Below the pieces are notes generated by a model, which was not told the origin of the DNA, made no database searches, and saw nothing but the letters and a program-made list of their open reading frames with translations. Shown in pieces: positions 141-34,803 of a stretch of DNA of 34,949 nt; position 1 is the first letter of the stretch; each line of letters begins with the position of its first letter. The stretch comes from Deinococcales bacterium (lineage in GTDB: Bacteria; Deinococcota; Deinococci; Deinococcales; JAAFIG01): assembly GCA_031414595.1 (NCBI GenBank), contig JANNVX010000077.1, positions 1 through 34,949 on the forward strand, in the 5' to 3' direction. Position numbers and translations under genes: made by a program.

Positions 141-266
141 GCTGTGTATCAGTGGACTTTGAGATGCACTCGAGCATGACTTAACATACGCTCAAGCAAC
201 TCAGGAATTATCATTTTTTCACCTGAAAAACAGTTAGACTACAGAGGCTGTATAGTAGGGGGGACT

Positions 267-419
267 ATGAACCAATCAAATAAGGCTCGAGCCGAGTACC
301 AAACACCGTGTCTCGAGGCACAAGCCAACTACACACTCACCACAGGAATTTCGCTGCCAGTTGGCACAAGTATCCCAGATAGTTTTGAGATGACCGATGT
401 TTTGGGAGAAGAACTATGA
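267..419 (+). CDS. 50-aa peptide with lasso-RiPP-type leader motif (YxxPxL...T-T-G)
   Basis: Manual translation: MNQSNKARAEYQTPCLEAQANYTLTTGISLPVGTSIPDSFEMTDVLGEEL*. A G-rich SD (AGGGGGGA) lies just upstream, and the TGA stop overlaps the ATG at 416 (ATGA). It is shorter than any ORF in the supplied track. Confidence 0.7.
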   Translation: MNQSNKARAEYQTPCLEAQANYTLTTGISLPVGTSIPDSFEMTDVLGEEL

Positions 420-1822
420 AGCCCTTTTTGACCATTGGCGCAATTGCTTTGCTGGGTTTAGCCGCCTGTAACCAAGCCACACCACAAGCCAGCAGCAGCA
501 AAGTGTTAGGTACACTCGAGCTAACCATTGGTGGCAAATCCGGCGAGAGCAAAGCCGTACTGCGCCCACTTGTCAGCACACCAGAGGCGGATACATCCAT
601 CACCATTGGTGCAGTGACTAACGTGTATGGTGTAGATGCCAATTTTAGGTATGTGACTGCACAATTTTCGATTACCGCCAATCAAGCCTTTAATAACTTA
701 ACGCTCTATGCGTACAATAAAACAGGTAATTTGGGTGGTACAGCCCTTAAAGGTTTAACCAATTTTACTGGTGGTGCGGTGGCTGGTACAGCCCAGAATT
801 TGCTGCCAATTCATGCCCGTACCAATCTTGGCGCAATCAATACCGCAGTGGCTGATTTTCAAGCCTTCTCGAGCGCCGATATTGCCCCAGTCCAAGCCTT
901 TGTACCGGGTGAAACAGTTTTACAGTACGGCTTTGTGGCGCGTAAAGATGCCACCACCCGAGCCTTTGCCAATGGCGAAACAGGTTCGATTACAGTGGCT
1001 TACAAAATTCCAATTGGTTCACAAAACGATGATACTTATAAATTTACCGCAACCTTTGTAGTGGCAAACGAAACAGTTAGCCGTGTGACAAGGGATATAG
1101 ACGAAACCACAACCCAAGCTGATGCTCGAGCCACTGCACTTAGCGCAACTCAAGTGGCATTATTAGGGACAGACTCTGATACTACTTCGGCACCCGGTGC
1201 AACCACAGTTCGTATTAATTCTGCAACCATTGGTGCGGCAGTTAATATGTACGAAGAAAACTTTGATTTACTTAACACAGGTCTACCAGCCAACTGGAGT
1301 TTGTACACTGGTGCAACAGCGAGCGCCCTTGGAACAGTTGTAACTGCTGCCCCTGCTATTACAAATTGGGCAAGTACAACTGGTGCTTTCAAAAACTTTT
1401 CTTCTAATTCATGTGGAAGTGCAGGTGAATCTGGGTGTGCTAACCGCGCCCTTGGTGTTCGTCAAACTGGTAGTTTTGGCGACCCTGGCGCTTCCTTTGT
1501 TTACACTTTGGCAAATACCACCAAATTTGGAAACTACACAGTCGAATTCCAAGCCCAAATGTTAAGTGTTCAAACGCGTTCAACCATTTGGACTCTGGAT
1601 TATCGAATAGGTACTGGGTTATTTACCACGCTTGGCACATATGCTGACCCAGGAATATTTGGTTCGACACCTACCACTGGAACTCTAGGTGTAAATGCTA
1701 ACAATCAGGCTCAGGCAGTCGAATTCCGCATCTCAGCCCTGACAAGTTCCACTGGTACTGGCAGCAGAGATAGTTTCGGAATAGACGATTTTAAGGTCAA
1801 AGCAACCCCTATTATCCCGTAG
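416..1822 (+). CDS. Secreted lipoprotein, two beta-rich domains
   Basis: Signal peptide ending in lipobox LAAC (Cys18). Thr/Ala/Gly-rich mature part; C-terminal domain runs from YEENFD to FGIDDFKV. Confidence 0.85.
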   Translation: MKPFLTIGAIALLGLAACNQATPQASSSKVLGTLELTIGGKSGESKAVLRPLVSTPEADTSITIGAVTNVYGVDANFRYVTAQFSITANQAFNNLTLYAYNKTGNLGGTALKGLTNFTGGAVAGTAQNLLPIHARTNLGAINTAVADFQAFSSADIAPVQAFVPGETVLQYGFVARKDATTRAFANGETGSITVAYKIPIGSQNDDTYKFTATFVVANETVSRVTRDIDETTTQADARATALSATQVALLGTDSDTTSAPGATTVRINSATIGAAVNMYEENFDLLNTGLPANWSLYTGATASALGTVVTAAPAITNWASTTGAFKNFSSNSCGSAGESGCANRALGVRQTGSFGDPGASFVYTLANTTKFGNYTVEFQAQMLSVQTRSTIWTLDYRIGTGLFTTLGTYADPGIFGSTPTTGTLGVNANNQAQAVEFRISALTSSTGTGSRDSFGIDDFKVKATPIIP

Positions 1823-1836
1823 CAAAACATAATCTC

Positions 1837-1872
1837 AAAACCCCCGCACTCCTCAAGAGGCGGGGTTTCTTT
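1837..1872. terminator. Intrinsic terminator between convergent genes
   Basis: AAAACCCCCGC...GCGGGGTTTCTTT hairpin with A- and T-rich flanks directly after the lipoprotein stop. Confidence 0.7.
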
Positions 1873-1925
1873 GGCTCGAGCTTAAGCGCTGTTGTGTCTG
1901 TACTTGACCAAGCCTAAAGAATTTA

Positions 1926-2411
1926 TTACGGTATTTCGATTTCGATTTGTTTGGGGAATCCCTTTGCAAATACCGAAGCCTCGAGTTCGCCGCCTGTATC
2001 ATAAAATTTAACTACACCGTTCAAATCGCATGTCCAAACTTCAATTGCGCCGCGTTCAAAGTACAGTTTGCGTTTACCAGTTATTTCTTTAGTGCTGTTG
2101 TTTGGTGATAAAATTTCTACGCAGAGTTCTGGGGCTTGGCTTAACTCGAGTTCATCACGGTGTAACTTAAAGAATTCATAGCTTGACCATGCGACATCAG
2201 GTACTTTTACGCCTTTGCGTGTCCAAATGGCGGTTTCGCTGCTGACCATGCCTTTGGAAAGATATTGCTTCATCATTTCACCCATACGAATCTGATAAAT
2301 GCCGTGAAGATACTTGGTTGGACTCATAACCACCTGCCCATATTCGTTGGTTTCAATTTTGAACGGTAAATTACTTAAATCTTGATGGTTGACTACTTCT
2401 TGCCATGTCAT
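1926..2411 (-). CDS. Uma2 (DUF820) family PD-(D/E)xK endonuclease
   Basis: Motifs MSP...H, VPDVAW, APELCVEILSP, K..LYFERGAIEVW; SD GAGGTG. Confidence 0.9.
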   Translation of the reverse strand: MTWQEVVNHQDLSNLPFKIETNEYGQVVMSPTKYLHGIYQIRMGEMMKQYLSKGMVSSETAIWTRKGVKVPDVAWSSYEFFKLHRDELELSQAPELCVEILSPNNSTKEITGKRKLYFERGAIEVWTCDLNGVVKFYDTGGELEASVFAKGFPKQIEIEIP

Positions 2412-2426
2412 TGTCTCACCTCTTGA

Positions 2427-2462
2427 TTGTCATTGTAGCAAAACCATAGACTCGAGCCATGA
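2427..2462 (-). promoter_or_regulatory. 36-bp duplicated promoter-like cassette (copy 1, upstream of the Uma2 gene)
   Basis: Reverse complement TCATGGCTCGAGTCTATGGTTTTGCTACAATGACAA is identical to 11740-11775 and contains the extended -10 TGcTACAAT. Confidence 0.65.
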
Positions 2463-2551
2463 TGCACCCTTTGATTCTTTCTGGTGAGGTTGCTAAACGT
2501 GCTTTAACTCGGTCTTCTGGTCAGCCCGAAGTCACCCCTATTATGCTCGGG

Positions 2552-3832
2552 CTATGGATACAACCCACGCAATGCCCGCGCCTCGAGGACTCGAGTACAT
2601 GCCACAATAAAAGTTGCGGTTCGCATCGTCACATTTTTATCTTGGGCGACATCCCAAATGCCCTTGAAGGCTTCCACCATGATTTTTTCTAAACGTTTGT
2701 TGATTTCGTCTTCTGTCCAAAAGAAACTGCTAAAATCCTGCACCCATTCAAAGTATGAAACCGTTACACCACCAGCATTTGCTAACACGTCCGGCACAAC
2801 AATAATGCCGCGTTCACGCAGGACATCATCGGCGGCTGGAGTGGTCGGTCCGTTTGCGCCTTCGACCACAATACGGGTTTTAATTAAGTGGGCGTTCTCG
2901 AGGGTGATTTGTTTTTCTAAAGCGGCAGGGATTAAAAATTCGGTTTCGACGCTCCAGAAATCGTTTTTGGCTATGGTTGTGGCTTTTGGATAGGCGGTCA
3001 CATCTGGGTTTTGTTTCATAAACTCGAGCAGGTCATGTGGATTTATACCGTCGCCATTAAAAATCGTGCCAGACACATCCTGAATCGCTACAACTTTTGC
3101 CCCGTGGTCATGAAAAATTCTTGCCGAGGCATTACCGACATTCCCAAAACCCTGCACCGTGACTCGAGAACCCGCAATTTCTAAACCAATACGATTGGCG
3201 GCTTCGCGTCCCGCCACAAAGACACCGCGCCCAGTCGCATCGCGTCGTCCGAGGCTGCCACCAAGGGCAATTGGTTTACCGGTGACCACCCCTGTGGCGG
3301 TGCGTCCTTGGTTCATGCTGTAGGTGTCCATCATCCATGCCATCGTCAGTTCGTTGGTGTTGACATCGGGGGCTGGAATGTCTTTGTCTGGTCCAATAAT
3401 AAAATTGATTTCCGAGGTGTAGCGCCGAGTCATCTTCTCGAGTTCACCACGCGATAGTTTGCGTGGGTCTACCCGAATTCCGCCTTTAGCGCCGCCGTAA
3501 GGCAGGTTTACCGCCGCGTTTTTAACCGTCATCCAAGCGCTTAATGCCATCACTTCCGAAAGCGTTACATCTTGGTGATAGCGCACCCCTCCCTTACCGG
3601 GTCCACGAGAAGAATTATGCTGTACACGGTAGCCTTCAAAATGGGCAATGCTGCCATCGTCCAGTTGAATTGGCACATCCACAATCAAAATACGTTTTGG
3701 TCGCTTTAAGGTCTCGACCCAGTAGGCAAGTTTCCCAAGGTAAGGAGTCACACGGTCTACTTGCTCGAGGTAAATTTCCCAAGGTCCTAGGTTATCATGA
3801 TTTAAGTAAGAAGGAACTTCATGTTGGTGCAT
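2552..3832 (-). CDS. gdhB: Glutamate dehydrogenase, catalytic subunit (Thermus GdhB-like)
   Basis: [40 protein letters not shown]-terminus SYL...[13 protein letters not shown] resembles Thermus GdhB. Start moved to ATG 3832, which follows AGGAG. Confidence 0.9.
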
Positions 3833-3848
3833 AGTTTTATCTCCTGTG

Positions 3849-3884
3849 AAGGGGAAGGCAAAGGGCGAAAGGCGAAAGGCAAAA
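3849..3884 (-). repeat. Heptamer tandem array (TTTYGCC)n
   Basis: Minus strand CTTTTGCCTTTCGCCTTTCGCCCTTTGCCTTCCCC, between the gdhA stop and the gdhB RBS. Confidence 0.75.
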
Positions 3885-3902
3885 GATTTTTTCCTCTTTC
3901 CT

Positions 3903-5189
3903 CTACGGGTATAAGCCACGTAAGTTGGTGCTTTCGTTGATTCGGCTGACTGCCAGAATAAATGCGGCTTGACGCAAATTGACATTGCGCTCGAGTTTTA
4001 CAGTATAAACACTGTCTAAGGCGTGTTGAATGTGTTGTTCTAGGTTGCTGCGAATCTCGTCTTCTGTCCAGTAGAGGTTGTTAAAATCTTGTACCCATTC
4101 ATAATAAGAAACGGTTACACCACCCGAATTGGCTAAGTAATCGGGGATAATCACCCGTCCCTCGCGCTCGAGAATGGTATCGGCTTGTCTGGTGATGGCA
4201 TGATTTGCGCCTTCGGCAATAATTTGGGCTTCGACTTTGGCGGCGTTACCAGCGTGAATTGCGCCTTCACGCACGGCTGGAACTAAAATATCTACGGGCA
4301 GAGTTAAAAGCGATTCATGGTCTATGCGTTTTGCGCCATTAAACCCAATGATTGTGCCGTGCTGATTTTTGTACTCGAGCAGGGCTGGAATATCAAAACC
4401 ATCATGGGCATAAATCGCGCCACTCGAGTCAGAGACCGCCACAATTCGCACACCGCGTTCAAATAGCCCGAGGGCAGCATAACGCCCGACCATGCCAAAA
4501 CCTTGGATGGCAGCACTGGCTTTCTCTAAGTTAATGTTTTCGCGCTTGGCAACCCCAAAAATGCTGTAGGCAATGCCGCGCCCAGCCGCTTCGACCCTGC
4601 CAACACTGCCGCCAAGGGCTACGGGTTTACCGGTTACCACACCAGTCACGGTGCTGCCTTTGTTTTGGCTAAAGGTGTCCATAATCCATGCCATCACTTG
4701 TTCGTTTGTACCAGTGTCTGGGGCGGGAATGTCTTTGTCGGGTCCGATTAAGTCCACCAGTTCGGAAGTGTAGCGCCTCGTCATGCGTTCAATTTCAGGT
4801 TTTGAGAGGGTTTTTGGGTCTACGTCTATACCACCTTTTGCACCACCGAACGGGAGGTTCATGACCGCACACTTAATGGTCATGGCGGCGGCTAAACCAC
4901 GTACTTCATCTAAGTTTAAGCCCGCCCGGTAACGGATTCCACCCTTCGAGGGTCCGCGTGAAATGCTGTGTTGAACTCGGTAGCCCGTAAAAAAACGCAC
5001 CGAACCATCGTCCATACGAGCAGGTACAGAGACCGTGACCATACGTTTAGGATGACGCAGATACTCGAGGGTTTCTGAACTGGCTCTAAAGTAGTTTTGG
5101 GTGGTTTCGATTTGATCAATAAAGGCGTGCCAGAGGTTTAAGTCCTCGGTTTGGGGTTCATTGCGAGCTTGTGGCTCGTGTTGGTTCAT
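3903..5189 (-). CDS. gdhA: Glutamate dehydrogenase family protein (Thermus GdhA-like partner subunit)
   Basis: [43 protein letters not shown]. Directly upstream of gdhB with the same RGLYP C-terminus; SD GGAGG. Confidence 0.85.
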
Positions 5190-5258
5190 GTGTCCTCCGT
5201 GGGGCGTAACAAATCCTCAAAACTGCCTCGAGGTTCTTAAGTTGTGCTTCGGTGGAGG

Positions 5259-5284
5259 ATTATACACCCCTTGCAAACGTTTGT
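5259..5284 (-). promoter_or_regulatory. gdhAB promoter -10 with adjacent palindrome
   Basis: TATAAT on the minus strand at 5259-5264; perfect palindrome CAAACGTTTG at 5274-5283. Confidence 0.5.
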
Positions 5285-5332
5285 TTGGTTAATGCCAGAT
5301 GAGACCGCCTAGTCAATCGAGCTATGGGCGTT

Positions 5333-8026
5333 TCAGCCAACCGAGGTACTTGGGCTACGCGGGGCTTTTAAGCGCCCCAACAAATCCATGGCTGCCACAG
5401 GTTTGGAAAAATAATAACCTTGCGAACGATCCACCGCTAAATCCCGCAACGCCAAAAATTGCTCCCTTGTCTCCACGCCTTCCGCCACGACGCTCATTCC
5501 AACATGCCGCGCCAGCAAAACAATCAGTTTAACCAAAGACCAACCCGAATCACCCGGCTCGAGGTGCGAAACAAAACTGCGGTCAATTTTTAAGGAGTTG
5601 ACTGGCAGTTTTTGTAAATACGCTAGGCTCGAGTAGCCCGTTCCAAAGTCATCTATGGCGGTTTGAATTCCTTGGGCTTGTAAACGCTGTAAACGCTCGG
5701 CAGCAAGGGCTGTATCGTTCATCAAAGCACTTTCGGTGACTTCTAGTTCAAGCGCTTTTGGGTCAAAATTGGTTTCTCGCAGCACCTTTGATACCGTATC
5801 CGAAAAATCTGCCCGCATTAACTGCTGCACATCTATGTTGACTGCCAAAGCCACATTTAAGCCGTCGCGTCGCCATTGACCGACTTCTTGGCAGGCTTTG
5901 CGTAAAATCCATTCACCCATTGGCACAATCAAACCAGACTCGAGCGCCACTGGTAAAAACCGCCCCGGTGCAACCAAACCTTCTTGCGGGTGCTGCCAAT
6001 AGAGCAACGCCTCGACCACAATCACTTGTTGGGCAGCATTGACTTGCGGCTGATAGCGCACCACAAATTCGTTGCGTTCAAGCGCACGGCGCAAGGACAC
6101 TTCGGTGTTTAAGCGTTCTTTGGCAAGGCTGTTCATGGCAGGGTCAAAACGTCTAAAATTACTTTTACCACTGCGTTTGACCCCATTCATGGCGGTGTCG
6201 GCATTTCGCAGTAGAATCGTGGCACTTGTGCCGTCGTCTGGATAAATGGCTGCCCCAATACTGGCGGATAAAAAAAGTTCCACCCCACGAAGCGAAAGCG
6301 GATACGACAGGGCTTTGAGCATTTCTTTTGCCAAGGCTTCGGCTTCCGAGACTTGCTCTAAATGATGCACCACCAAAGTAAACTCGTCGCCACCCGGACG
6401 CGCCAACATATCCCGAGACGGCAAAATAGTACGCCAACGGTCAGTCACAGTTCGCAGCACCTCATCGCCGACCTCATGTCCAAGGGTGTCGTTGATTCGC
6501 CTAAAACCATCTAAATCTATTTGTAGCACCGCCAATTTCCAGCCGCGTTGCAACGCCACTTTTAAGGCACCCTCAAGGTGACGCTCGACCCCGTAACGAT
6601 TCGGTAATTTGGTCAGGGTATCGGTGCTGGCTTGGTCATCTAAGCGGTCAATTAGGGTACTTCGTTCAATCACCAAGGTGGCTAAACGTGCCACATTTTC
6701 AAAATGCTCGAGTTGACTGGGGGTTGGCGCACTGCTGCGTGAAAAATGCAGTTCAAGCGCCCCAATCACCGCGCCATCGGCAGAAGAAATCGGGACTGCC
6801 CAAGAACTCGCCACCCCACTCATCAGCATTGCCCTGTCCATATTGATCCAACGCGGGTCGTCTTGAATCGCTTCAACCACGGCTGGCACAGCCTCGAGAA
6901 TCGCATAAGAAGCCGTCCCATGCCCTAAACCAATCGGTACACCATCCAGCAGCGAACGCACCAGTGGTCGCCAATTGGGAGCGACTTGTAAAACCAAACG
7001 CTCGGCTTTACGCATAAAAACACCCGCCGTTGACCCGGCAAAAATCTTCTCGAGTAAGCCCGTTAAAGTTTGCAGCGTTTCGTTGAGGGGCGCACCACGC
7101 AGCGCCAACTCAAGAACCCGATTGCGGTAGGCTTCCAGAAGTTCGTTGCTTTTGCGTTCAGTAATATCGCGCCGCCACGAAACACGATTGGTAATCACCC
7201 CCAATTCGTTGCGAATCGGCACAATCGAAAGTTGCACCCAAAGCGGTGTGCCGTCTTTTTTATATTCAATCGTTTCTAAATCCACCGATTTACCAAGTCG
7301 CAAATCGGCTTTGGCACGGTGGTACAAATCGGTGTCGCCATAAGCCCCGCGCAGTAAACCAGCCGTCTGCCCAAGCGACTCTTGGGGCGAAAAGCCCATC
7401 AGATTAGAAAAAGCCGCATTGACAAAAATAATTTTTGAATTCTGTTCGTTGCCATCGTCTGGGACAGCGATTTCACTGATTAAAACACTCTCATCGGCGT
7501 TCAGCACAGCACTTTCAAAGAGTTGTAAGCGCTGATCAAACTCTGAAAGTGTGGCTTTATCCTCGGCTCGAGCTTGGGTCTGTTTTTTAGATTGCTGGCG
7601 CAAAAAACCGTTTTCTAAGGTCGAAGCCACCAACACCGATAAACGCTCGAGTTGAACCACTTGGGCTGGGGTCAGTTGCACCGCTTGGCGGTACATCAGC
7701 ATCAAAACCCCTGCCACGGTATTTTCTAAAATCACTGGCACTGCCGCCACCACCGAAACGACTTGTTGAATCGTGCGTTCTGACCAATGCAGGTATTGTT
7801 GTACCACCAAAGGTTCGGCACTTGCCCAGACCCGCCCAGGAACATCCACCCCTTTATCAAAACTGGTGGCAATCTCTAAAGCCATACCTTCTGCCAGCAC
7901 ACGCTGCATCGAAGTTCCAGCCACCACATAAAGCGCCACACCATCGGGTATAAAAACTGTTGAACACAATGCCATGATTGTTTGTAAAGCATCACGGTCA
8001 GAAGAAAGCGGCTTTGAAACTTGCAT
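5333..8026 (-). CDS. GAF-PAS-GAF-GGDEF-EAL diguanylate cyclase/phosphodiesterase
   Basis: PAS/PAC (FVNAAF, KKDGTPLWV, DITERK), DLDGFRRINDTLGH, GGDEF, EALL, LELEVTES, DDFGTGYSSL, LKIDRSF, AEGVET, QGYYFSKP. Confidence 0.95.
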   Translation of the reverse strand: MQVSKPLSSDRDALQTIMALCSTVFIPDGVALYVVAGTSMQRVLAEGMALEIATSFDKGVDVPGRVWASAEPLVVQQYLHWSERTIQQVVSVVAAVPVILENTVAGVLMLMYRQAVQLTPAQVVQLERLSVLVASTLENGFLRQQSKKQTQARAEDKATLSEFDQRLQLFESAVLNADESVLISEIAVPDDGNEQNSKIIFVNAAFSNLMGFSPQESLGQTAGLLRGAYGDTDLYHRAKADLRLGKSVDLETIEYKKDGTPLWVQLSIVPIRNELGVITNRVSWRRDITERKSNELLEAYRNRVLELALRGAPLNETLQTLTGLLEKIFAGSTAGVFMRKAERLVLQVAPNWRPLVRSLLDGVPIGLGHGTASYAILEAVPAVVEAIQDDPRWINMDRAMLMSGVASSWAVPISSADGAVIGALELHFSRSSAPTPSQLEHFENVARLATLVIERSTLIDRLDDQASTDTLTKLPNRYGVERHLEGALKVALQRGWKLAVLQIDLDGFRRINDTLGHEVGDEVLRTVTDRWRTILPSRDMLARPGGDEFTLVVHHLEQVSEAEALAKEMLKALSYPLSLRGVELFLSASIGAAIYPDDGTSATILLRNADTAMNGVKRSGKSNFRRFDPAMNSLAKERLNTEVSLRRALERNEFVVRYQPQVNAAQQVIVVEALLYWQHPQEGLVAPGRFLPVALESGLIVPMGEWILRKACQEVGQWRRDGLNVALAVNIDVQQLMRADFSDTVSKVLRETNFDPKALELEVTESALMNDTALAAERLQRLQAQGIQTAIDDFGTGYSSLAYLQKLPVNSLKIDRSFVSHLEPGDSGWSLVKLIVLLARHVGMSVVAEGVETREQFLALRDLAVDRSQGYYFSKPVAAMDLLGRLKAPRSPSTSVG

Positions 8027-11615: not shown

Positions 11616-11722
11616 GTGTAATACCTCTTTTTTTTTAAGTCCGGCAAGCTTGAGCCACGCCAAAGGTGCGTACCCTTACTCCCGCGAGGGAAGACGGTAT
11701 CACACCTGACTCGAGAAGACAA
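11616..11722 (-). promoter_or_regulatory. rpsO promoter and putative S15 autoregulatory leader
   Basis: TTGTCT-17 nt-TACCGT with upstream TG (11722-11694). The leader can pair TAAG/CTTA enclosing ACGC/GCGT and GGC/GCC stems (three-way junction) next to the SD. Confidence 0.55.
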
Positions 11723-11739
11723 GGGCAGTTTTGGGTGAG

Positions 11740-11775
11740 TCATGGCTCGAGTCTATGGTTTTGCTACAATGACAA
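11740..11775 (+). repeat. 36-bp duplicated promoter-like cassette (copy 2, no gene downstream)
   Basis: Identical to the reverse complement of 2427-2462. Confidence 0.8.
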
Positions 11776-16871: not shown

Positions 16872-16960
16872 CTGAGAGATGTAAGAACACGATGAACTTT
16901 AGAACCTACGAAAGGTCTTTAATTTTAGAAGTTTTTTATTGAATACGTGAATGGAAAAAC

Positions 16961-17077
16961 AGGGCGAACACAGGGGTTCGCCCCTACCTCACGTATTGTT
17001 TATGCCATGCCTGTAGGGACAGGCGACCATGCCCGAAGGTGCGCGTATATGGTCAAGACACCCCTGTGTCTGTCCTG
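16961..17077. repeat. GTAG-REP doublet (BIME/REPIN-like), second REP interrupted by a 37-bp insert
   Basis: AGGGCGAACACAGGGGTTCGCCCCTAC, a spacer similar to 34-55, then GTAGGGACAG[37 nt]ACCCCTGTGTCTGTCCTG matching 56-83. Confidence 0.8.
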
Positions 17078-17121
17078 TAACTAACGACGAAATGGCTTTC
17101 CTTTAGAGGCTCTAATGAACT

Positions 17122-19185: not shown

Positions 19186-20814
19186 GTGACATTGCGCGAA
19201 GCCCTAGATATACTTGAATTAAATCCCAATAGTTTAGATCGTCAAGTGCTGGAAAGCACCCTAAGAAAAAACTTAGAGAGTATTGAATTACGCAACGTCA
19301 TGCGCTTACTCGAGGCATACCGCAAAGCCAATGCTTTTATCAACCCAACCCTTGCCACGCATGGTGATGTCCGCGTGACCATGATTGACGAACCCGTCCC
19401 AGATGGTCCACCGCTTAACCAGCGCCCTGCCGCAAAGCGTTTAGCCGATGAATCAAAGCAAAAATTAAAACGCGATTTTGTTCCTGGCGCAACTTTTGAC
19501 GAGTCGATTCTTAAAGCCCCAAGAACCAGCAGTCCCCCAACCCTATCGGATGCTTCTATCTATGCGACACAAGAAATCATGCCGAGCGAATTACCCGCCC
19601 CGATTGTCCAAGGGCGAAAACCCAAGAATAATGTCTTAATCACCCCAGAAGACCATGCCCCACAAACCAAAGGCGTGAGTATTCTCTGGGCTGGATTAAC
19701 GGCTGCGGCAGGAATTGCTGCCGCCTATTTTCTGGTTTTCCCAGCCCTTGCCACCTACTTTCCATCAAACTCTGGAATACGAGCAACTGTCCCGCCAGCC
19801 ATTACCAAACCAGTCAACACCACAAAACCAGTCATCTCGAGTAACACCACAAACCCCACGAACACCACCACAAAACCAGTCATCTCGAGTAACACTACAA
19901 AACCAGTCATCTCGAGCAACACCACAGCCACGCAAGCCGCAAAACTACAAGCTCAGAAGCTCGAGGCTCAAAAGTTGGCAGCACAAAAACTCGAGGCTCA
20001 AAAAACAGCAGCACAAAAACTTGAAGCACAGAAGTTAGCAACACAGAAGCTCGAGAATCAAAGACTAGCAGCACAAAAACTCGAGGCGCAAAAATTAGCC
20101 GCACAGAAGTTAGCAACACAAAAGCTCGAAGCTCAAAAGACAGCCGCACAAAAACTCGAAGCACAAAAACTGGCAGCACAAAAGCTCGAGGCGCAAAAAT
20201 TAGCTGCTCAGAAACTCGAGAATCAAAAAACAGCCGCGCAGAAGTTAGCCGCACAAAAACTGGCTACTCAAAAGTTGGCAGCCCAGAAACTATCCGCACA
20301 ACAAGCCCAAGCCGCAAAACCCAGTACCTCAACATTTACTCCAAATAATGCAACTGCACAACAAAACGCCCAACTTCAAGTCCAAGCCGCCCAACGACGT
20401 GCTGCCCAACAACGTGCCGCAATTCGTGCCGAAGCCAATCGGCGTTACTTAGCACAACAACGACTAGAAGCCCAGCGCTTAGCCGTCAGACGCGCCGAAC
20501 AACAAGCCGCAGCCAGACGTGAAGCTGAGCAAGCCGCCATCAGACGTGCCGAACAACAAGCCATCGCCAGACGTGAAGCCCAACAAGCATCAGCACGAAG
20601 GGCAAGCCAACAAGCTGCCGCCAAACGCGCCAGTGTTTCGGTACGCAGTCTCAATCAAGGTAGTTTTAGTGCTTGGGACAGATCGGGTGCAGTTTTACGC
20701 TACTCGAGTTGGGCAGCTATTCCAGATTCAGTACGGGCGTTACCCACAGCCCAATTTAGGGCGCAAGTCTATGTGGCATCTTCGCCAGCCAACTTGCCCG
20801 GCTTACCACGATAG
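19186..20814 (+). CDS. Bitopic membrane protein with J-like N-terminus and TolA-like AQKL(E/A) repeat spacer
   Basis: GTG 19186 after GAGGTG gives MTLREALDILEL, homologous to the next gene's start. One TM helix (ILWAG...FLVF), a repeat region and a conserved C-terminal segment. Confidence 0.8.
   Translation: MTLREALDILELNPNSLDRQVLESTLRKNLESIELRNVMRLLEAYRKANAFINPTLATHGDVRVTMIDEPVPDGPPLNQRPAAKRLADESKQKLKRDFVPGATFDESILKAPRTSSPPTLSDASIYATQEIMPSELPAPIVQGRKPKNNVLITPEDHAPQTKGVSILWAGLTAAAGIAAAYFLVFPALATYFPSNSGIRATVPPAITKPVNTTKPVISSNTTNPTNTTTKPVISSNTTKPVISSNTTATQAAKLQAQKLEAQKLAAQKLEAQKTAAQKLEAQKLATQKLENQRLAAQKLEAQKLAAQKLATQKLEAQKTAAQKLEAQKLAAQKLEAQKLAAQKLENQKTAAQKLAAQKLATQKLAAQKLSAQQAQAAKPSTSTFTPNNATAQQNAQLQVQAAQRRAAQQRAAIRAEANRRYLAQQRLEAQRLAVRRAEQQAAARREAEQAAIRRAEQQAIARREAQQASARRASQQAAAKRASVSVRSLNQGSFSAWDRSGAVLRYSSWAAIPDSVRALPTAQFRAQVYVASSPANLPGLPR
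19951..20295 (+). repeat. 23 x 15-nt coding tandem repeat (AQKLE/AQKLA/AQKTA)
   Basis: Counted from the translation; many LE units are encoded by CTCGAG. Confidence 0.9.
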
Positions 20815-23004: not shown

Positions 23005-23991
23005 TTACGAGGTTGCTCGTGGGAAAATCCCAGTCTCGAGGTAGCTGCGTAAACGTTGTTCGCTAGTCTCGAGGTAGGCTTGCGCTCGGGCTTGAAGGTC
23101 AGCTGTTTCGTTGGTTAAAAGGTCATTTGCCAGCAACAATTGCCGCCCAGCGATGATTGCTTCGAGTTCGGCTTGTTGGTAGTTGGGCAGATTCCCGTGA
23201 CCAAAAAGCAGCGCATTCTCGAGGGCAGCACTATTTTTTAGACGGCGCAAATAAAAAATACTAATCCCAAAATCTTGTAAAGGTACACCTATGGCGCTGT
23301 CATCAAAGTCAAAAACTGAAAGCTGCCCCCTAAACCATTTTATATTCCAAAAATGCAAATCGGCATGGAGCGGCTGGGCTTTGAAACGCTGATACAGTGT
23401 TTCGTGAACGGCTTTAACTTGCTGATGAGCAATTTTGAAGACTTCGAGCCGAGCGGCTGGCATGGGTGTATCAAAAATCACGACTTTAGAATCTATGAAG
23501 ACATCCAAGGCATTTTGAAATTGGCAACCCTTGGGAATTTTCCAAGTCGCAGCATGCTGATGCAAGGTCTTTAGGGCTGCACCTGTGGCTTGGAGTTGCA
23601 CAGGTGTGGCACTCGAGCCAAGGTCTTTACCTGCCAACCACGAAAACAGCACCGCCACGGTATTGCGCCCTAATGTTTTTGAATAAAAACTCGAGATTAA
23701 CCCGCCATCTTTACGTGCTATCGGATGTGGCAAAATTAAATCGGTTTCTTTAGATAGTGCCTCGAGCCAAGCAATTTCGGCGCTTAGGGCTGGCATTGGA
23801 CGGCGTGAATTAACATTGATTCGCAGTGCAAATTTTTGTCCACCTGCGGTGTCTACTCGAAATGTGGTGTTAAAACCATGATTGATACAACGCAACCGAG
23901 CCACAACAAGTGGGTACTGCTCGAGAATTTTTAAGGCATCAGCGCGAAGTCGCAGAATTTGCGCCCGTCTGGAAAGTTCGGCAAAAGTCAT
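23005..23991 (-). CDS. Phosphotransferase (APH / type II homoserine kinase-like)
   Basis: N.TFRV, ALRI, EIAWL, LHADLHFWN, FDFDD; start moved to ATG 23991 after TAGACT. Confidence 0.85.
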   Translation of the reverse strand: MTFAELSRRAQILRLRADALKILEQYPLVVARLRCINHGFNTTFRVDTAGGQKFALRINVNSRRPMPALSAEIAWLEALSKETDLILPHPIARKDGGLISSFYSKTLGRNTVAVLFSWLAGKDLGSSATPVQLQATGAALKTLHQHAATWKIPKGCQFQNALDVFIDSKVVIFDTPMPAARLEVFKIAHQQVKAVHETLYQRFKAQPLHADLHFWNIKWFRGQLSVFDFDDSAIGVPLQDFGISIFYLRRLKNSAALENALLFGHGNLPNYQQAELEAIIAGRQLLLANDLLTNETADLQARAQAYLETSEQRLRSYLETGIFPRATS

Positions 23992-24078
23992 GCTACCAAG
24001 TCTACAAAACTGTCTCGAGTAAACGCATATGCAGTTTGGCGGATGCAAGCACTAGGTAAAAAAATTTAGACTACACCC

Positions 24079-27909: not shown

Positions 27910-27964
27910 GAAACCCAAGCCTCTATGAGTACCACCACAGCCAAGCGCCCGAAAAGGAAAAACC

Positions 27965-29062: not shown

Positions 29063-29068
29063 AAAATA

Positions 29069-29117: not shown

Positions 29118-29126
29118 ACTCGAGCC

Positions 29127-29423
29127 ATGAAAGGAACACATTTGGTTCGGGTCAGTAAAAGCAGTGGTGGTTTTCCGATTCCGTTAGCTGGGGTGAAAGT
29201 TGAAACCCTGCGGCTCGAGTTGCCACAAGACATTTTGAGTGATCAGGAAGTGTTGTATCTTTGTCTCGAGTCCGAAGTAGTGATTGACATGGGCTTGGAT
29301 TTCGCCCATTTGCGTCCACTCGAGGCGTTTACGGTACGAGGAGCGCATAAACTTTCGCCAGTCAACAGCAGTAAGTCGGCGTTGGTTGGGGTTTGTATTT
29401 TATTGCGAATAGCCAAAGTTTGA
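29127..29423 (+). CDS. Hypothetical protein (possible cupin-like beta fold)
   Basis: 98 aa; TAGACT-N6-ATG start; LCLESEVVID...FAHLRP.E strand pattern. Confidence 0.6.
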   Translation: MKGTHLVRVSKSSGGFPIPLAGVKVETLRLELPQDILSDQEVLYLCLESEVVIDMGLDFAHLRPLEAFTVRGAHKLSPVNSSKSALVGVCILLRIAKV

Positions 29424-29552
29424 TGAATAGCATCCTGCTGGAAGCGTTTAACTTGACATTCTTGTTCGGCTTGCACAGCATTGTAGCCAGATTTTGTTTA
29501 GGGTACTTGCCGAATCACAAGGTCTTTGTTAGTATCTTCGCGGAGGCAAAAA

Positions 29553-30341
29553 ATGAGTTTGCGTGTCGCACGGGCATATGACCGAAACAGGTATCATCCG
29601 CCGGAGGTTTCCGGAAAGATAGCCACTTCGATTGTCGAACCGCTCGAGCGAGAATACAAAGGGTCGCAGCATATCTTAGAAGTTGGGGTTGGCACGGGCA
29701 GAATTGCCATGCCGATTGTGGCTCGCGGAATGCAGTACACTGGCGTAGACATTGACCCCGAGATGATGAGTGCTTTTCGTGGCAAATACGCTGGGGTCTC
29801 GAGACGGGTGACTTTGGTCACAGCCGACGCTCAAGAATTGCCTTTTGCTGATAATAGTTTCCAAGCTGTCATTGCTGTCCATATCTGGCATTTAGTGCCG
29901 GATTTAACCACTGCCTTAGACGAAGCCGTGCGGGTTTTAAGCCCAAACGGTTTTCTTTTTGAAGGTTGGGATTCGCCTGATGCCAGCAGTGCCGAATTTG
30001 AAATTCAGGACGAATGGTGCAAAGCCCTCGAGAAACTCGGACATCCGATTCAACGCGGTGGACACCGAGCCGCCTTAAACACCAGTCAGCGTTACCTCGA
30101 AGAACGTGGTTTTACCCCCAACGAAGTGGTCATTTCGAGGTGGGAAGTCTCGCATTCGCCGCTAGAAGTGGTTGAAGCGCTCGAAGATGGGCTGTATAGC
30201 TTTACCAAGAATGTACCGCTCGAGCTTCGTTTTGAAGCTGGGCGAGCCATTAAACCATTTCTTGAATCGCGCTACAAAGAACTCGAGACGCAGATTAAAA
30301 CCCCGTGGAGTTTTCATTTACGCACCACCCGTATTCCATGA
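29553..30341 (+). CDS. Class I SAM-dependent methyltransferase
   Basis: ILEVGVGTGRI, GVDID, ADAQELPFADNSF, VLSPNG; ATG 29553 after GGAGG. Confidence 0.9.
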   Translation: MSLRVARAYDRNRYHPPEVSGKIATSIVEPLEREYKGSQHILEVGVGTGRIAMPIVARGMQYTGVDIDPEMMSAFRGKYAGVSRRVTLVTADAQELPFADNSFQAVIAVHIWHLVPDLTTALDEAVRVLSPNGFLFEGWDSPDASSAEFEIQDEWCKALEKLGHPIQRGGHRAALNTSQRYLEERGFTPNEVVISRWEVSHSPLEVVEALEDGLYSFTKNVPLELRFEAGRAIKPFLESRYKELETQIKTPWSFHLRTTRIP

Positions 30342-31261
30342 ATCAATCCCTGACCGCCTTAATAGGGGTTCGGGTGGGACATTGGACAAATGTAGAAGCC
30401 CGCACTGGTTGCACAGTTATTCTTTTCCCAACCGGTGGTGTGGTGATGAGCGCCGAAGTACGTGGCGGAGCGCCCGGAACACGCGAAACCCCGTTACTCG
30501 CGCCCGACAAAGCTGTCGAAAAAGTTCATGGCTTACTTCTCACGGGCGGCAGTGCCTACGGTTTAGCGGCTGCCACGGGCGTAATGCAGTGGCTCGAGGA
30601 TAACGGTGAAGGGGTGCTGACCCCCGGAGGACGAGTTCCAATTGTGCCAAGCGCGGTTATTTTTGATTTAGCAGTCGGAAACCCTCTAATCCGCCCAAAT
30701 GCCGAAGATGGTCTTGCCGCTTGTCAAACCGCCTCGAGTGACCCGATTCAAAACGGTCAGATTGGGGTGGGTGCTGGAGCAATGACTGGTAAACTGCTTG
30801 GTTTTGCTCATGCCCAAGCTGGGGGTATCGGCAGTGCGCTCCTACAAGTTGGAGGCGCAACCGTCACCGCACTGGTTGTGGCAAATCCGACAGGCGACAT
30901 TGTTGACTCGAGCGGTACTGTGATGGCTGGGACAACCAAACCCGATGGTACACGCCTGACCGACCCCGAACGGCTCGAGATTCTAGCAATGGGTCAAAAT
31001 AAGTTCATGCAACACACCAACACGACCTTAATTGCCGTTGGTACAAATGCCAAACTTTCTAAACTCGAGTGCAGTATCCTCGCCCAAGCTGCCCAGATGG
31101 GCTTAGCCAGAGGAACTCGCCCTTCACACACGCCGCACGATGGTGATACAAGTTTTGTGTTCAGCACCAATGAAGTGGAAAGCCCACCGCTTATTGCTTT
31201 GGTTGCAGCCGTGCAGAGCGTGGTGCATATGGCATTATTAAACGCGGTTACTCGAGAATAA
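30338..31261 (+). CDS. P1 (DmpA/S58) family peptidase
   Basis: GVRVGH, TGCTV, RGGAPGTRET, GGSAYGL, NTTL, HTPHDGDT.F; ATGA overlap with the upstream stop. Confidence 0.9.
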   Translation: MNQSLTALIGVRVGHWTNVEARTGCTVILFPTGGVVMSAEVRGGAPGTRETPLLAPDKAVEKVHGLLLTGGSAYGLAAATGVMQWLEDNGEGVLTPGGRVPIVPSAVIFDLAVGNPLIRPNAEDGLAACQTASSDPIQNGQIGVGAGAMTGKLLGFAHAQAGGIGSALLQVGGATVTALVVANPTGDIVDSSGTVMAGTTKPDGTRLTDPERLEILAMGQNKFMQHTNTTLIAVGTNAKLSKLECSILAQAAQMGLARGTRPSHTPHDGDTSFVFSTNEVESPPLIALVAAVQSVVHMALLNAVTRE

Positions 31262-32756
31262 ACTCGAGTGGAAAAACCCCAGTGAACAATCTGCTCCACG
31301 CTAAACTCGAGCCGTGCCAGACCAGGTTAGTGTTCTCTAAGCGTGGTGCAAAATGCGTGGCGAATAATTCAAATGCTAAAGGTTTGATGCGCTTTTCTAT
31401 TTCGGCTTCAGCAACCCCCTTTAATTCTCCTAAGTCAAATGGACTTGGGTTATTCATGGCTTCACGCACTTCGGAACGCACAAGCGACTGGTACAAATAA
31501 TCATCCACCAGTCTCGAGAAATTGGCTTCGGAAAGGGCTGTTTTATTGCTGCAATGAAGCGCACAAATACCCGAGGCAATCGCACTGCCAAGCGTATTGC
31601 CGGCGGTGTTCCAAGCCGCAAAACCAGCCAGTTTTGTAACATCGGCTCGAGCCAGAAGCTGCTTGATAAAACGTGGTTCTGCGCCGTTGGCATAGGCAAC
31701 ATCTGCCACCGTCACGGCTCGAGAATGATTTAGGTCATCACAAATATCATCTATAAAGGCTGATAAGTGCCGATTCGCCGTGTCCACCACTTCAAAATCT
31801 GGGGCGCGGTGAGCTTGTTTAATGGCGGGGGCATTGACCGCAAAAATCAGGTCGGCGGTACTGGCACGGGCGGCTGGAACTCCACCCGCTGACCGAATAT
31901 GGGCTTTGACCAGTTCGCCAAGCAGACGGTCTTCGTAAAGCATGATGCTGTTCTCGGCTTGAACACTGGGGTAACGCACAAAGACACTGGGTTTACGCCC
32001 ACCAGCATCCACAATCGCTCGAGCCAAAAGCGCCGCCGCCACTTCATCCGCTCCGGGGTAAACATCGGCTTTTTCCCAAAGTTCAAGTGCATCTATTCGC
32101 GCCTCGAGCCTGCGACGGTCACGGGCGGCTAGACCATAGGGTGTAGTGTCATCAAGCGTTAAACATAAATGCTCGAGGATACCTTCAGCCAGCAATTCAA
32201 GGGCGCGTTGATGCAGGGCATGATTTCGGTCCCTTGTCCCTAGCCAATCTTCAAGGATTTCTTCTGGGATGGCTTTTTTAGCCGCTTTTAACTCATCATC
32301 ATCTGCGCCACGTTCTACCCTGTCTATCCATTCGGAGACTTTGCGTAAATCTGCGCCAAAACGCCCATAGTACGATTTTTCTTCAAAAGGGTCGTTGTCG
32401 TGTGCGACACGCACAACCACACCATAGGCATAAAGTTTTATTTGGGGATTCAGGCGTTTGACTTGCCGCAGCACCTCGAGCCGAGCCAGTGCATCCTCTA
32501 GTGGGTCTGAGACACGCCGCGCTGGAATCATTCCGCCAAGGCAAAGTGTCTCGAGGGTAATAATTGCGGCATCGGCGGTTAGGGCATTCTCGAGCAGCCA
32601 TGTGGCGATTTTTTGGGTATCACCGGGGGTGTTCAGGTTATTCAGCATCTCGAGTGGCGGCACACGCATCTCGAGTCCAGCCACTTTTGCCAGTTGCATA
32701 GGCAATTCAAGGGTTGGTGGGCGGGTATCGCAGGGCAGCAGTAAAACCGTTTTCAT
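31248..32756 (-). CDS. DUF4127 family protein
   Basis: LLPCDTRP, GGMIPARR, LDDT, YPGADE, DVAYANG, AAWNTAGNTLGSA, DDYLYQ..VR, WSRLF. Confidence 0.8.
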   Translation of the reverse strand: MKTVLLLPCDTRPPTLELPMQLAKVAGLEMRVPPLEMLNNLNTPGDTQKIATWLLENALTADAAIITLETLCLGGMIPARRVSDPLEDALARLEVLRQVKRLNPQIKLYAYGVVVRVAHDNDPFEEKSYYGRFGADLRKVSEWIDRVERGADDDELKAAKKAIPEEILEDWLGTRDRNHALHQRALELLAEGILEHLCLTLDDTTPYGLAARDRRRLEARIDALELWEKADVYPGADEVAAALLARAIVDAGGRKPSVFVRYPSVQAENSIMLYEDRLLGELVKAHIRSAGGVPAARASTADLIFAVNAPAIKQAHRAPDFEVVDTANRHLSAFIDDICDDLNHSRAVTVADVAYANGAEPRFIKQLLARADVTKLAGFAAWNTAGNTLGSAIASGICALHCSNKTALSEANFSRLVDDYLYQSLVRSEVREAMNNPSPFDLGELKGVAEAEIEKRIKPLAFELFATHFAPRLENTNLVWHGSSLAWSRLFTGVFPLEFILE

Positions 32757-32762
32757 TTGAGC

Positions 32763-33317
32763 TTATTCAAACATAAAAGGCTCGAATAATGCAGCCACCT
32801 CGAGTTCAAAGTCTGGCAAACAAGGTACGGTCAATCTCTGCCCAATACCAAATTTTCTTGGTTTTGCTTCACCAAGTTCAAAAACCAGCACCTTTTGATC
32901 TTCAGAGTCTATTGCCCAGTAGGTTTCCACAAAATTACGTTGGTATAACTGCACTTTTTCGGTCAAGTCCCGAATTCGAGTGGATGGCGACAAAACCTCA
33001 ACCACAAAATCTGGAGCGCCAACCAAACCTCGAGACGAAAGCAACTCCAATCGTTCTGAACGAATAAAAATCAGGTCTGGGACAACAATTTGATTGACCT
33101 CAATAAAAACATCGAGCGGCGCAAAATAAACTTTGCCACAAGGATGATGCCGTAAATAAGTCTGAATCTGGTAACTCAATTCATCAAGAATAGCTTGGTG
33201 TGTACTTGTTGGTGATGCCGTTTCGATCAACCTCCCATTTAATAACTCAAAACGCTGGTTACTATCTTCAGGCAGCAGTAACCAGTCCATATAAGTAAAT
33301 TCTCGAGTCTCGAGCAT
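32763..33317 (-). CDS. Uma2 (DUF820) family endonuclease
   Basis: FELLNG, SP...HQ, APLDV, VPDLIF, GAPDFVVEVLSPST..RD..EK..LY, YW.ID. Confidence 0.92.
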   Translation of the reverse strand: MLETREFTYMDWLLLPEDSNQRFELLNGRLIETASPTSTHQAILDELSYQIQTYLRHHPCGKVYFAPLDVFIEVNQIVVPDLIFIRSERLELLSSRGLVGAPDFVVEVLSPSTRIRDLTEKVQLYQRNFVETYWAIDSEDQKVLVFELGEAKPRKFGIGQRLTVPCLPDFELEVAALFEPFMFE

Positions 33318-33326
33318 ATTAGAAGT

Positions 33327-34745
33327 CTACTCCAAACCGACAGCTTTGTTCAAAATGCCCCGAATCACTTCTGGGTTGGCTTTACCACCCATTTCTTTCA
33401 TCACTTTACCAAATAAACTGTTGACGGCTTTGGCATTCCCAGCCGCAATTTGGCTTAGTACATCAGGGTTCTCGAGAATAATTTTCTGCACTGCCGTCTC
33501 AATTGTGCTGGTATCCGAAACTTGGAGTAAACCACGTTCGATCACCAAAGTCTCGGGGTTTGCGCCGTTGATTACCTCTGGCAAAATATCCTTAGCAATT
33601 CGTCCCGAAATCGTACCAGAATCTATCAGTTTTAAGAGGGCTGCAAGGTGTGCAGGTGTTAAACCCGTAGCGTTCAACTCGAGGGCGTGTTCGTTCAAAA
33701 ACCCTGCTATATCGGCATTTAGCCAATTGGCGATTTTTTGGGCTTCGCCAGCGTACAAGGCTTTACAGGCTTCAAAAAAACTTGAGGCACTGGCATTGTA
33801 GGCAATTTGTTCGGCATCGGCTGAGCGCAAACCCAAAGCACTGTACTCGAGAATTTTCTGGTCTGGTAATTTTGGCATGGTGCTGCGAATTCGCGTAATC
33901 CAAGCCTCGTCAATCTCGAGCGGCGGCAAATCTGGTTCTGGGAAGTAACGGTAATCGGCTTCGCCTTCTTTGGTTCGCATTAAAAAAGTCCTGCCGCGCT
34001 CATCATCCCAACCCATCGTGTCTTGGGTAATTTTGCCGCCACCACGCACGATTTTTGTTTGTCGGTCAATTTCATAATCGAGGCTTCGGGCAACGCTTCT
34101 AAAACTGTTTAAGTTTTTAACCTCGACTTTTGTACCAAATTCGGTGTTTGGTAAATGCACCGAAACATTGACATCACAACGCATTTTGCCTTCTTCGGGT
34201 TTGGCATCACCAATGCCTAGGGCTTGAACAATGGCTTGAATTTTTTGCAAAAAGGCTCGAGCTTGCTCAGCATCCACAATGTCTGGTTCTGTGACCATTT
34301 CGATTAAGGCACAACCCGCACGGTTCAAATCCACCAAGCTGTAGGCAGCATCAGACGGATGAATCAGCTTTCCTGCGTCATTCTCGAGGTGAGCGCGTTT
34401 AATTCGCACGGTTTTACCCAGCACTGTGATAAAACCATCCCGAGCTATTGGACGGTCATACTGAGAAATCTGGAAATTATGCGGTGAATCTGGATAAAAA
34501 TAGTTTTTACGGTGAAACTGCGTAAACCCCGAGACATCACAATTTAAGGCAAGCCCAAACATGATTGCGTTATCCACAGCCTGTCTGTTAATAGTCGGCA
34601 ACACACCCGGTAAACCAAGACTAAAGGGGTCGGTAAACGAATTTGGCGCACCACCAAAATAATCAGCACTAACGCTCGAGAACATCTTAGACTGGGTGGA
34701 TAACTGGATATGAACTTCTAAACCAATGGTTGCTTCGTAACTCAT
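33327..34745 (-). CDS. gatB: Asp/Glu-tRNA amidotransferase subunit B
   Basis: [67 protein letters not shown]. Confidence 0.98.
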
Positions 34746-34803
34746 AAACGCAGTTTACCGTGTCTCGAGTGACCGATGTAGCCATTGTTTTGTGCAAATG
34801 GCT

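Follow-up and report, generated by a model that had tools for sequence, protein, structure and literature searches.

CTCGAG, a highly iterated HIP1-like palindrome maintained at the DNA level in a lineage of Deinococcota

Introduction

The closest described counterpart of the pattern analysed here is HIP1 (GCGATCGC), the highly iterated palindrome of cyanobacteria, which has been characterised together with the alternate HIPs of that phylum (Elhai 2015, PMC4390886; Xu et al. 2018, PMC5861425; both cited from the accessible parts of their texts). Three decades on, HIP1 still lacks an explanation, and it has been regarded as a cyanobacterial peculiarity. Here we analyse a 34,949-nt contig of a Deinococcales bacterium (GCA_031414595.1, JANNVX010000077.1; the window, at its full length), in which the hexamer CTCGAG is dispersed at very high density. 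Like HIP1, CTCGAG is a short GC-rich palindrome that is many-fold over-represented in genes, in all frames, and in spacers, that is conserved above control words and missing from compositionally foreign DNA, and that is lineage-specific with exceptions inside the lineage. It differs from HIP1 in belonging to another phylum, in being another word of six rather than eight bases, and in its density (about 5-7 per kb versus about 1 per kb); we find no conserved cognate methyltransferase for it, its 8-base palindromic extensions are avoided, and its one-letter variants are depleted and unstable, whereas variants of HIP1 are reported as conserved in the accessible part of PMC5861425.

Three other systems invite comparison. 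The DNA uptake sequences (DUS) of Neisseriaceae and uptake signal sequences (USS) of Pasteurellaceae have an established role in uptake, alter the proteome, are fairly evenly spaced and conserved, and occur in lineage-specific dialects. CTCGAG is likewise a word dispersed genome-wide that shapes peptide content, is conserved, is scarce in recently acquired DNA and differs between related lineages, and the ComEC competence channel is encoded here too; uptake sequences, however, are asymmetric words of 9-12 bases, with about one copy per kb, often paired in inverted orientation within terminators, whereas CTCGAG has six bases, is palindromic and is five times denser. In Escherichia coli, CCWGG illustrates how a repair bias acting through Dcm and Vsr can raise a methylated palindrome and lower its deamination product, but that effect is small and T:G-specific, whereas CTCGAG is 24-fold enriched, every neighbour of it is depleted and Vsr was not found in the genome studied here. 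Finally, XhoI and PaeR7I recognise the identical six bases; restriction targets are avoided, whereas CTCGAG is enriched, and an XhoI-family nuclease was found in 0 of 28 enriched genomes. A literature search, with subscription journals largely outside its coverage, found no paper describing a CTCGAG excess in any genome.

Results

CTCGAG is the most frequent hexamer of the genome

The window belongs to an assembly (G000) of 4,488,778 bases in 120 contigs, with 47% GC and 94% completeness. A first-pass annotation had put the number of CTCGAG sites in the window at about 188, or about 1 per 185 bp, against 7-8 expected by chance. Recounting gives exactly 188 copies, the first at 169 and the last at 34764, against 8.0 computed from base composition, a 23.5-fold excess; in 100 dinucleotide-preserving shuffles of the window the mean is 4.09 (standard deviation 1.98, maximum 11) and none reaches 188, which makes the excess about 46-fold by this measure.

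169..34769, no strand: 188 dispersed CTCGAG, mean spacing about 185 bases, without common flanks

Genome-wide, G000 carries 23,235 copies, 23.9 times the composition expectation, and CTCGAG is its most frequent hexamer; the next hexamers are three times scarcer, and the runners-up are its own 5-letter overlaps. The reverse word, GAGCTC, has only six copies in G000 and none in the window. The first-pass annotation had considered that the excess might be confined to this contig or arise from assembly; it extends across the genome, with 2.3 per kb in the poorest of the 120 contigs, and recurs in 19 of 19 genomes of the family, including one assembled as a single contig.

The repeated unit is the bare hexamer

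When the positions from -10 to +10 around all sites of G000 are compared, each base has a frequency of 0.17-0.30 at every position, without consensus, and palindromic 8-base extensions of CTCGAG are under-represented (0.191 versus 0.258 expected), so the unit is the bare hexamer and not a repeat element. CTCGAG is a genuine highly iterated palindrome of six bases only, not a piece of something longer. A dispersed element of the repetitive extragenic palindrome (REP) or miniature inverted-repeat transposable element (MITE) kind was rejected because no common sequence lies outside the six-base core, and the under-represented 8-base extensions rule out an extended palindrome or hairpin.

The bias overrides codon choice and part of amino-acid choice

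Long open reading frames (ORFs) served as proxy genes, 3,324 in G000 (85% of the genome) and 31 in the window. CTCGAG density in G000 is 5.14 per kb within proxy genes, 5.34 per kb outside them and 5.52 per kb in strict intergenic gaps (30-400 bases between proxy ORFs, 185 kb in total), and it is flat around gene starts and stops (4.0-6.9 per kb). In the window, 22 of the 188 sites fall outside ORFs, at 6.8 per kb versus 5.2 per kb inside. Of ten sites earlier cited as intergenic, nine indeed fall in none of the 31 ORFs. The remaining one, at 24014 rather than 24015, is within the opening 35 bases of ORF 23005-24048 at its longest reading. As the first-pass annotation had claimed, all three frames are used: 111 sites in the window's ORFs read CTC-GAG, with 30 and 29 in the remaining frames, and in G000 that frame accounts for 60% of genic sites, while the two others contain 7,913.

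Synonymous codons were then shuffled within each gene, a procedure that leaves the protein unchanged, along with a codon usage that the word has itself inflated. The 170 sites in the window's ORFs compare with a mean of 16.9 and a maximum of 29 over 200 shuffles, and the 19,618 observed in the ORFs of G000 with 1,838-1,913, such that an excess of about tenfold persists under the codon-preserving null that had been proposed as a check. When codons within CTCGAG are set aside, only 7.9% of the Leu codons in G000 are CTC and only 20% of the Glu codons are GAG. Shuffles, frames and intergenic density thus agree with the earlier claim that amino-acid usage cannot account for the sites. The possibility that the word is a by-product of a Leu-Glu or CTC-GAG codon-pair preference, or of sequencing or assembly, can draw on the predominance of the CTC-GAG frame in genes and on CTC and GAG being common codons among high-GC relatives, but we give it virtually no credence: it is refuted by the codon shuffle, by the low usage of both codons outside the word and by an intergenic density equal to that of coding DNA, while the 7,913 sites in other frames, the near-absence of GAGCTC and the repetition of the pattern in independent assemblies, single-contig genomes among them, tell against it as well.

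The effect reaches the proteome. Leu-Glu is the most over-represented dipeptide in G000, at 2.23 times expectation versus 0.98 for Glu-Leu. In 27 orthologue pairs between G000 and G197, 68 of 91 Leu-Glu dipeptides encoded by CTCGAG align to a different dipeptide, mostly Leu-Asp, Val-Glu, Leu-Ser and similar, and Leu-Glu totals 136 in G000 versus 69 in G197. The bias therefore overrides synonymous codon choice and part of amino-acid choice.

CTCGAG is conserved as a whole word and its neighbours are depleted

DNA of three congeners was aligned to G000. At mean identities of 89% (G001), 85% (G004) and 78% (G003), 85.6%, 75.6% and 76.9% of CTCGAG sites are conserved, versus 58.8%, 46.1% and 30.5% of all hexamers, respectively. 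Hexamers of the same composition are conserved like the average (31.1% in G003), and in non-coding DNA 78 of 101 sites are conserved in G003 versus 35.5% of hexamers. Lost sites align chiefly to transition neighbours and to the synonymous Leu-Glu spelling TTAGAA. Words one letter off are less conserved than average (0.20-0.40 versus 0.31-0.59 for all hexamers), and for 22-35% of transition neighbours the other species has an intact CTCGAG at the aligned position. Between genera (about 70% identity) positions turn over: of those sites of the window that can be aligned, the shared fraction runs from 1 of 11 to 4 of 7.

As a baseline for variant frequencies we used G197, a genome of the same order with 49.5% GC and no excess, of which 196 kb were sampled. 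The G000/G197 frequency ratio is 21.6 for CTCGAG itself, 0.63 for words differing by one letter, 0.75 for two, 0.97 for three and 0.98-1.04 for four to six. All nine strand-symmetric one-off classes are depleted (transversions 0.31-0.82, transitions 0.70-0.86), the outcome of a comparison that the first-pass annotation had suggested, and such depletion of every neighbour argues for a pull towards the whole word rather than the signature of a single mismatch-specific repair.

A separate observation from the alignments is that CTCGAG repeatedly stands opposite CCCTTG/CAAGGG, 12 times in G004 and 16 times in G003 with strands pooled. These words are three letters apart and synonymous in no frame; the alignments possibly reflect a repeated element.

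Sites are spaced more evenly than expected and tend to be replaced locally

Spacings below 20 bases between CTCGAG sites in G000 occur at 0.3-0.5 of the exponential expectation, and a spacing of 6, which would create GAGCTC, is never seen. The variance/mean of counts in 250-base bins is 0.84, whereas none of 15 comparably abundant control 5-mers falls below 0.97, and the gamma shape of the spacings is 1.43 versus 1.06-1.17 in four controls, a rise due in large part to the short-range deficit. Loss tends to be compensated nearby: where a G000 site is lost in G003, a site private to G003 lies 7-30 bases away in 47 of 231 cases. Around conserved sites this happens in 64 of 751 (p = 2.6e-6), and around random positions in 469 of 3,828 (p = 7e-4). 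The same comparison made from G003 to G000 gives a consistent result; the effect extends over about 100 bases and has vanished at 101-200 bases.

The longest CTCGAG-free stretches in G000 measure 2.9-4.9 kb and have 32-39% GC versus 47% for the genome, which marks them as compositionally foreign; they are probably recently acquired islands.

C46:36668-41609, G000: site-free stretch
C30:4280-7535, G000: site-free stretch
C14:37566-40432, G000: site-free stretch

Two lineages carry an extreme excess and several a milder one

Enrichment across relatives, a further check that had been proposed, was surveyed in 301 genomes, all of one order; the unpublished genome G265 supports no claim. Densities of family f1, to which G000 belongs, were computed with rounded genome sizes.

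Family f1: 4.3-6.8 per kb, in 19 of 19 family genomes and 10 of 10 in the 301-genome sample
G253 (family f3, genus g36): 7.0 per kb, 24,536 sites in 3.5 Mb; reverse word 30
G197 (also genus g36): 0.3 per kb, 683 sites in 2.3 Mb
G196 (genus g35): 3.6 per kb
Genera g13, g18 and g19 (family f5), 29 genomes: 1.4-3.5 per kb, GAGCTC being in most cases scarcer, by several-fold to over 40-fold
Several f2 genera: 1.5-2.6 per kb
Genus g9, 31 genomes: about 0.6-1.6 per kb, the same level as the reverse word
Genus g7, 100 genomes: 0.01-0.3 per kb, a deficit

We find that the excess is strong in f1 and in G253 and milder in further genera, including 99-100% complete genomes in few contigs, one of them in a single contig; these probably come from cultured strains. 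From the survey, g7 and g9 would be Deinococcus-like and Thermus-like genera, and g13, g18 and g19 their mesophilic or moderately thermophilic sisters. Five genomes were checked more closely on samples. G253 reaches 29 times expectation, with 9.3 per kb outside ORFs and Leu-Glu at 2.32, while its congener G197 has 1.3 times expectation and a shuffle ratio of 1.0. CTCGAG is the top hexamer in G196 (67% GC, shuffle ratio 3.5, Leu-Glu 1.97) and in G090 (shuffle ratio 2.8); the single-contig genome G043 has 5.9 times expectation, a shuffle ratio of 3.1, 1.16 per kb outside ORFs, and Leu-Glu at 1.50 versus 0.94 for Glu-Leu. New here is that the excess reaches beyond a single uncultured family and that the second extreme lineage adjoins a congener without it. 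In 18 orthologue pairs, G000 and G253 share 31 site positions of 91 and 122, where random overlap would give about 0.7; this is compatible either with common ancestry or with convergent use of the same permissive positions.

Six-base palindromes below 0.2 of expectation number 42 of 64 in G000, 33 of 64 in G253 and 5 of 64 in G197, those nearly absent from G000 including GGGCCC (0 copies), CGATCG (3) and GAGCTC (6). Extreme palindrome avoidance accompanies the CTCGAG excess in both extreme lineages.

A scan of viral contigs for three sites close together returned, among the matches listed, mostly contigs of 63-72% GC that are also GAGCTC-rich and is uninformative on phages of f1; 16S rRNA was not found in the G000 assembly with two primer-like motifs.

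No methylation or restriction machinery was found to track the word

DNA methyltransferases are abundant in G000, with at least 25 matches in four Pfam families. The first-pass annotation had pointed to an orphan XhoI- or TaqI-like methyltransferase; no conserved one was found. Two TaqI/PaeR7I-like enzymes of G000 (L010 and L012) were rejected as cognates because they are sporadic, occurring in 4 of 19 and 3 of 19 family genomes. Of 19 strongly enriched genomes searched, 12 lack the TaqI_C domain, which 5 of 5 g9 genomes possess; its presence does not track enrichment. When five representatives of the family's five genera were searched, no PF01555 enzyme was found in the single-contig genome G013 and no C5 methyltransferase in G010. 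No methyltransferase cluster (at least 40% identity, five Pfam families) spans more than 3 of 6 family representatives; D12-class enzymes occur in 5 of 5 genomes searched, but that of G000 is only 25-28% identical to the others. Non-orthologous methyltransferases could methylate CTCGAG.

An XhoI-family nuclease (PF04555) was not found in G000, in 44 of 45 Deinococcota genomes, or in any of the 28 enriched genomes searched. The sole one lies in G021 (C1:74896-76793; L316:8897-10794) beside a PF01555 methyltransferase; this genome is not enriched, yet CTCGAG is not avoided in it (3,937 sites, 1.7 per kb). An XhoI-type system was rejected because G000 has no match to the nuclease, only 1 of 45 genomes has one, and full-length matches to that neighbouring methyltransferase in G000 and the family representatives are at most 29% identical, and an XhoI-type restriction target because the site is enriched, not avoided, and PF04555 was not found in G000. 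A word driven by very-short-patch (VSP) repair was also rejected: Vsr was not found in G000, there is no C5 enzyme in G010, and transition neighbours are the least depleted. With no conserved methyltransferase, XhoI-type nuclease or Vsr found, a HIP1-style link to methylation is unsupported. What stands of the first-pass interpretation is a HIP1-like iterated palindrome in a Deinococcota lineage (the top word genome-wide, in all frames and spacers, conserved above controls); of the three mechanisms offered with it, the methylation-coupled repair drive is unsupported, and a DNA-uptake or recombination signal and a chromosome-organising mark are still candidates.

Independently of CTCGAG, the methyltransferase L010, at C89:286-1962 on a contig of 2.1 kb, is similar to CamA, an orphan methylase of CAAAAA (PDB 7lni, E = 6e-26), and to M.BseCI, and CAAAAA is among the commonest hexamers of G000, at 4.1 times expectation.

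Discussion

We are highly confident that the CTCGAG excess is real and that active maintenance at the level of DNA keeps the word at a saturating density. A fixation bias for the exact hexamer, directed against all of its one- and two-letter variants, holds about 5 copies per kb throughout the chromosome, and that it saturates is shown by the equal density in genes and spacers, the avoidance of close pairs and the replacement of lost sites nearby. Taken together, the evidence speaks against a coding explanation and against a repair drive directed by methylation, and it fits a reader of the whole word; we infer that a sequence-specific factor of these lineages reads CTCGAG as a unit.

The reading we place first, tentatively and with less than even confidence, is that CTCGAG is a candidate tag of self or kin DNA in natural transformation, acting in uptake, recombination or both. 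DNA richer in CTCGAG would be taken up or recombined more often, and since site-rich DNA would thus be favoured, site-creating changes would spread by molecular drive. Deinococcota include naturally competent model species, and the ComEC channel (PF03772) is present in 44 of 45 genomes searched, including G000 and 28 of 28 with strong or moderate excess. For HIP1, the accessible text of one preprint reports that the word raises transformation efficiency and suggests a Chi-like component (bioRxiv 10.1101/2024.09.10.611283), and the available part of a 2026 study in GBE proposes HIP1 as an uptake sequence that correlates with pilus and competence genes and, in that part, without significant correlation to methyltransferases (PMC13756078). 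A broader version is more doubtful: CTCGAG may be the shortest and densest uptake or recombination signal known, and the pressure behind it may be ancient and spread widely through the Deinococcus-Thermus order. It would be slight in several 99-100% complete genomes assembled in few contigs, extreme in two lineages of intermediate GC, and elsewhere lost or turned into a deficit. The word would then be convergent with HIP1, with neither needing a dedicated methyltransferase.

Several points weigh against the self-DNA tag. ComEC is equally present in genomes without excess, so that its presence merely fails to refute the uptake idea and is necessary rather than discriminating. The searches yielded no reader protein. 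Uptake sequences known so far are asymmetric and 9-12 bases long, and any 6-base palindrome arises by chance about every 4 kb, which gives poor discrimination. The genera taken to represent model competent organisms, g9 and g7, show no excess or a deficit. Local replacement is weak in the closer pair with G004, although in the same direction (p = 0.03-0.6), and rate heterogeneity along genes could inflate this signal; the G197 baseline covers only 196 kb. Positional conservation and local compensation, moreover, suit a selected structural binding site equally well.

Such a site, bound by a lineage-specific nucleoid or chromosome-organising protein and kept by ordinary selection with diminishing returns, ranks next, on a level with a methylation-linked drive, and we consider either of them unlikely. 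The structural site would account for conservation well above background that extends to non-coding DNA, for even spacing, local compensation and equal density in genes and spacers, for retention of the exact word alone, and for the scarcity of sites within about 20 bases of each other, a distance that could plausibly be a footprint; Xu, Lawrence and Durand argue likewise for HIP1 in the accessible part of PMC5861425. It has no candidate protein, however, and the heavy positional turnover between genera (1 of 11 to 4 of 7 shared at about 70% identity) and the range from none to extreme within one genus would be odd for a core architectural system. In the methylation-coupled drive, modelled on Elhai's proposal for HIP1 (PMC4390886, as far as its available text goes), a cognate methyltransferase would mark CTCGAG, and methyl-directed or very-short-patch repair would make and restore sites. 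Besides that analogy, G000 is very rich in methyltransferases (at least 25 matches), its 42 of 64 palindromes below 0.2 of expectation speak of intense methylation biology, and one-letter deviants at 0.83 of expectation at the outer two positions and 0.57-0.59 at the inner four resemble the HIP1 pattern in the accessible part of Elhai's paper; a hot-spring metaepigenome preprint also reports, in its available text, methylated CTCGAG and TCGA within one host-phage group, whose phylum is given only in figures (10.64898/2026.06.24.734251). Against this stand the failure to find Vsr or an XhoI-family nuclease in the 94%-complete G000, the restriction of that nuclease family to 1 of 45 genomes, one without enrichment, the sporadic TaqI-like enzymes (3 of 19 and 4 of 19) and the absence of TaqI_C from 12 of 19 strongly enriched genomes, G013 without PF01555 and G010 without a C5 enzyme, methyltransferase clusters that never exceed 3 of 6 representatives with D12-class enzymes only 25-28% identical, and the lack, in G000 and the family representatives, of any relative above 29% identity over most of its length for the methyltransferase adjoining the G021 nuclease. 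Transversion neighbours are, in addition, more depleted than transition ones, the opposite of T:G-specific repair.

Less probable again is a Chi-like signal, which would shield self DNA from a resection nuclease and stimulate recombination, the palindrome being read both ways. The whole-word bias, selection against long site-free stretches and absence from foreign DNA would suit it, as would the 32-39% GC of the longest site-free stretches versus 47% for the genome, and the HIP1 preprint suggests a Chi-like component in its accessible text (10.1101/2024.09.10.611283). Known Chi sites are, however, asymmetric and strand-skewed, and their over-representation is modest.

A second, denser word in an unrelated phylum makes the phenomenon general and provides an independent system in which explanations can be tested. 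Natural contrasts exist between congeners at 7.0 versus 0.3 per kb and between sister genera at about 3 versus about 0.9 per kb, so that comparative genomics can seek the gene responsible, and the milder form in probably cultured strains makes methylome, DNA-binding and uptake experiments feasible. A pressure that doubles a dipeptide in the proteome also matters for codon-usage models, for the detection of foreign DNA and for XhoI cloning.

Sites at individual loci and other features of the window

Four loci of the window illustrate how the sites are distributed.

2552..5189, minus strand: two tandem glutamate-dehydrogenase-type genes, with 12 sites traceable in up to 17 relatives
11710..11751, no strand: a non-coding example, two CTCGAG at a distance of 36 bases in the spacer that separates rpsO from an ApaG-domain gene
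19836..20220, plus strand: nine CTCGAG in 385 bases, in a repetitive histone-H1-like (HC2, PF07382) ORF of 640 residues
27965..29062, plus strand: recA, highly conserved, yet with three sites (28400, 28861 and 28877)

In the glutamate-dehydrogenase-type pair, sites 3023 (13 of 17 relatives) and 3764 (14 of 16) are retained across the family, and site 2897 (1 of 17) is species-specific, as are others in the pair. The longest reading frames of these tandem genes, which are of the glutamate/leucine-dehydrogenase type, share 83 bases. The nine sites of the HC2-like ORF lie at 19836, 19884, 19911, 19960, 19990, 20050, 20080, 20185 and 20215; of the eight intervals between them, five measure 27-30 or 60 bases, CTCGAG riding here on a repeated Leu-Glu of the protein.

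Two genes of the window (1926-2411 and 32763-33317) encode putative nucleases of the Uma2 family (PF05685), of which there are about 26 candidates genome-wide. Because of these two genes, and because the family is expanded in cyanobacteria, Uma2 copy number was considered as a driver; it was rejected since it does not follow CTCGAG density, with 2-22 first-look candidates in g9, where the family is abundant although the excess is lacking, 5 in G253, and G196 missing from the list of genomes with a match.

A 140-base repeat, 99% identical, is inverted at window positions 1-140 and 34804-34943 and also terminates at least 11 other contigs of G000, and it probably represents an insertion-sequence terminus at which the assembly breaks. 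Positions 16900-17114, between genes for a TPR protein and a protein kinase, hold a dispersed repeat of about 215 bases that resembles a MITE; contigs C97 and C112, as well as genomes G001, G005 and G007, have copies of it that are 86-88% identical.

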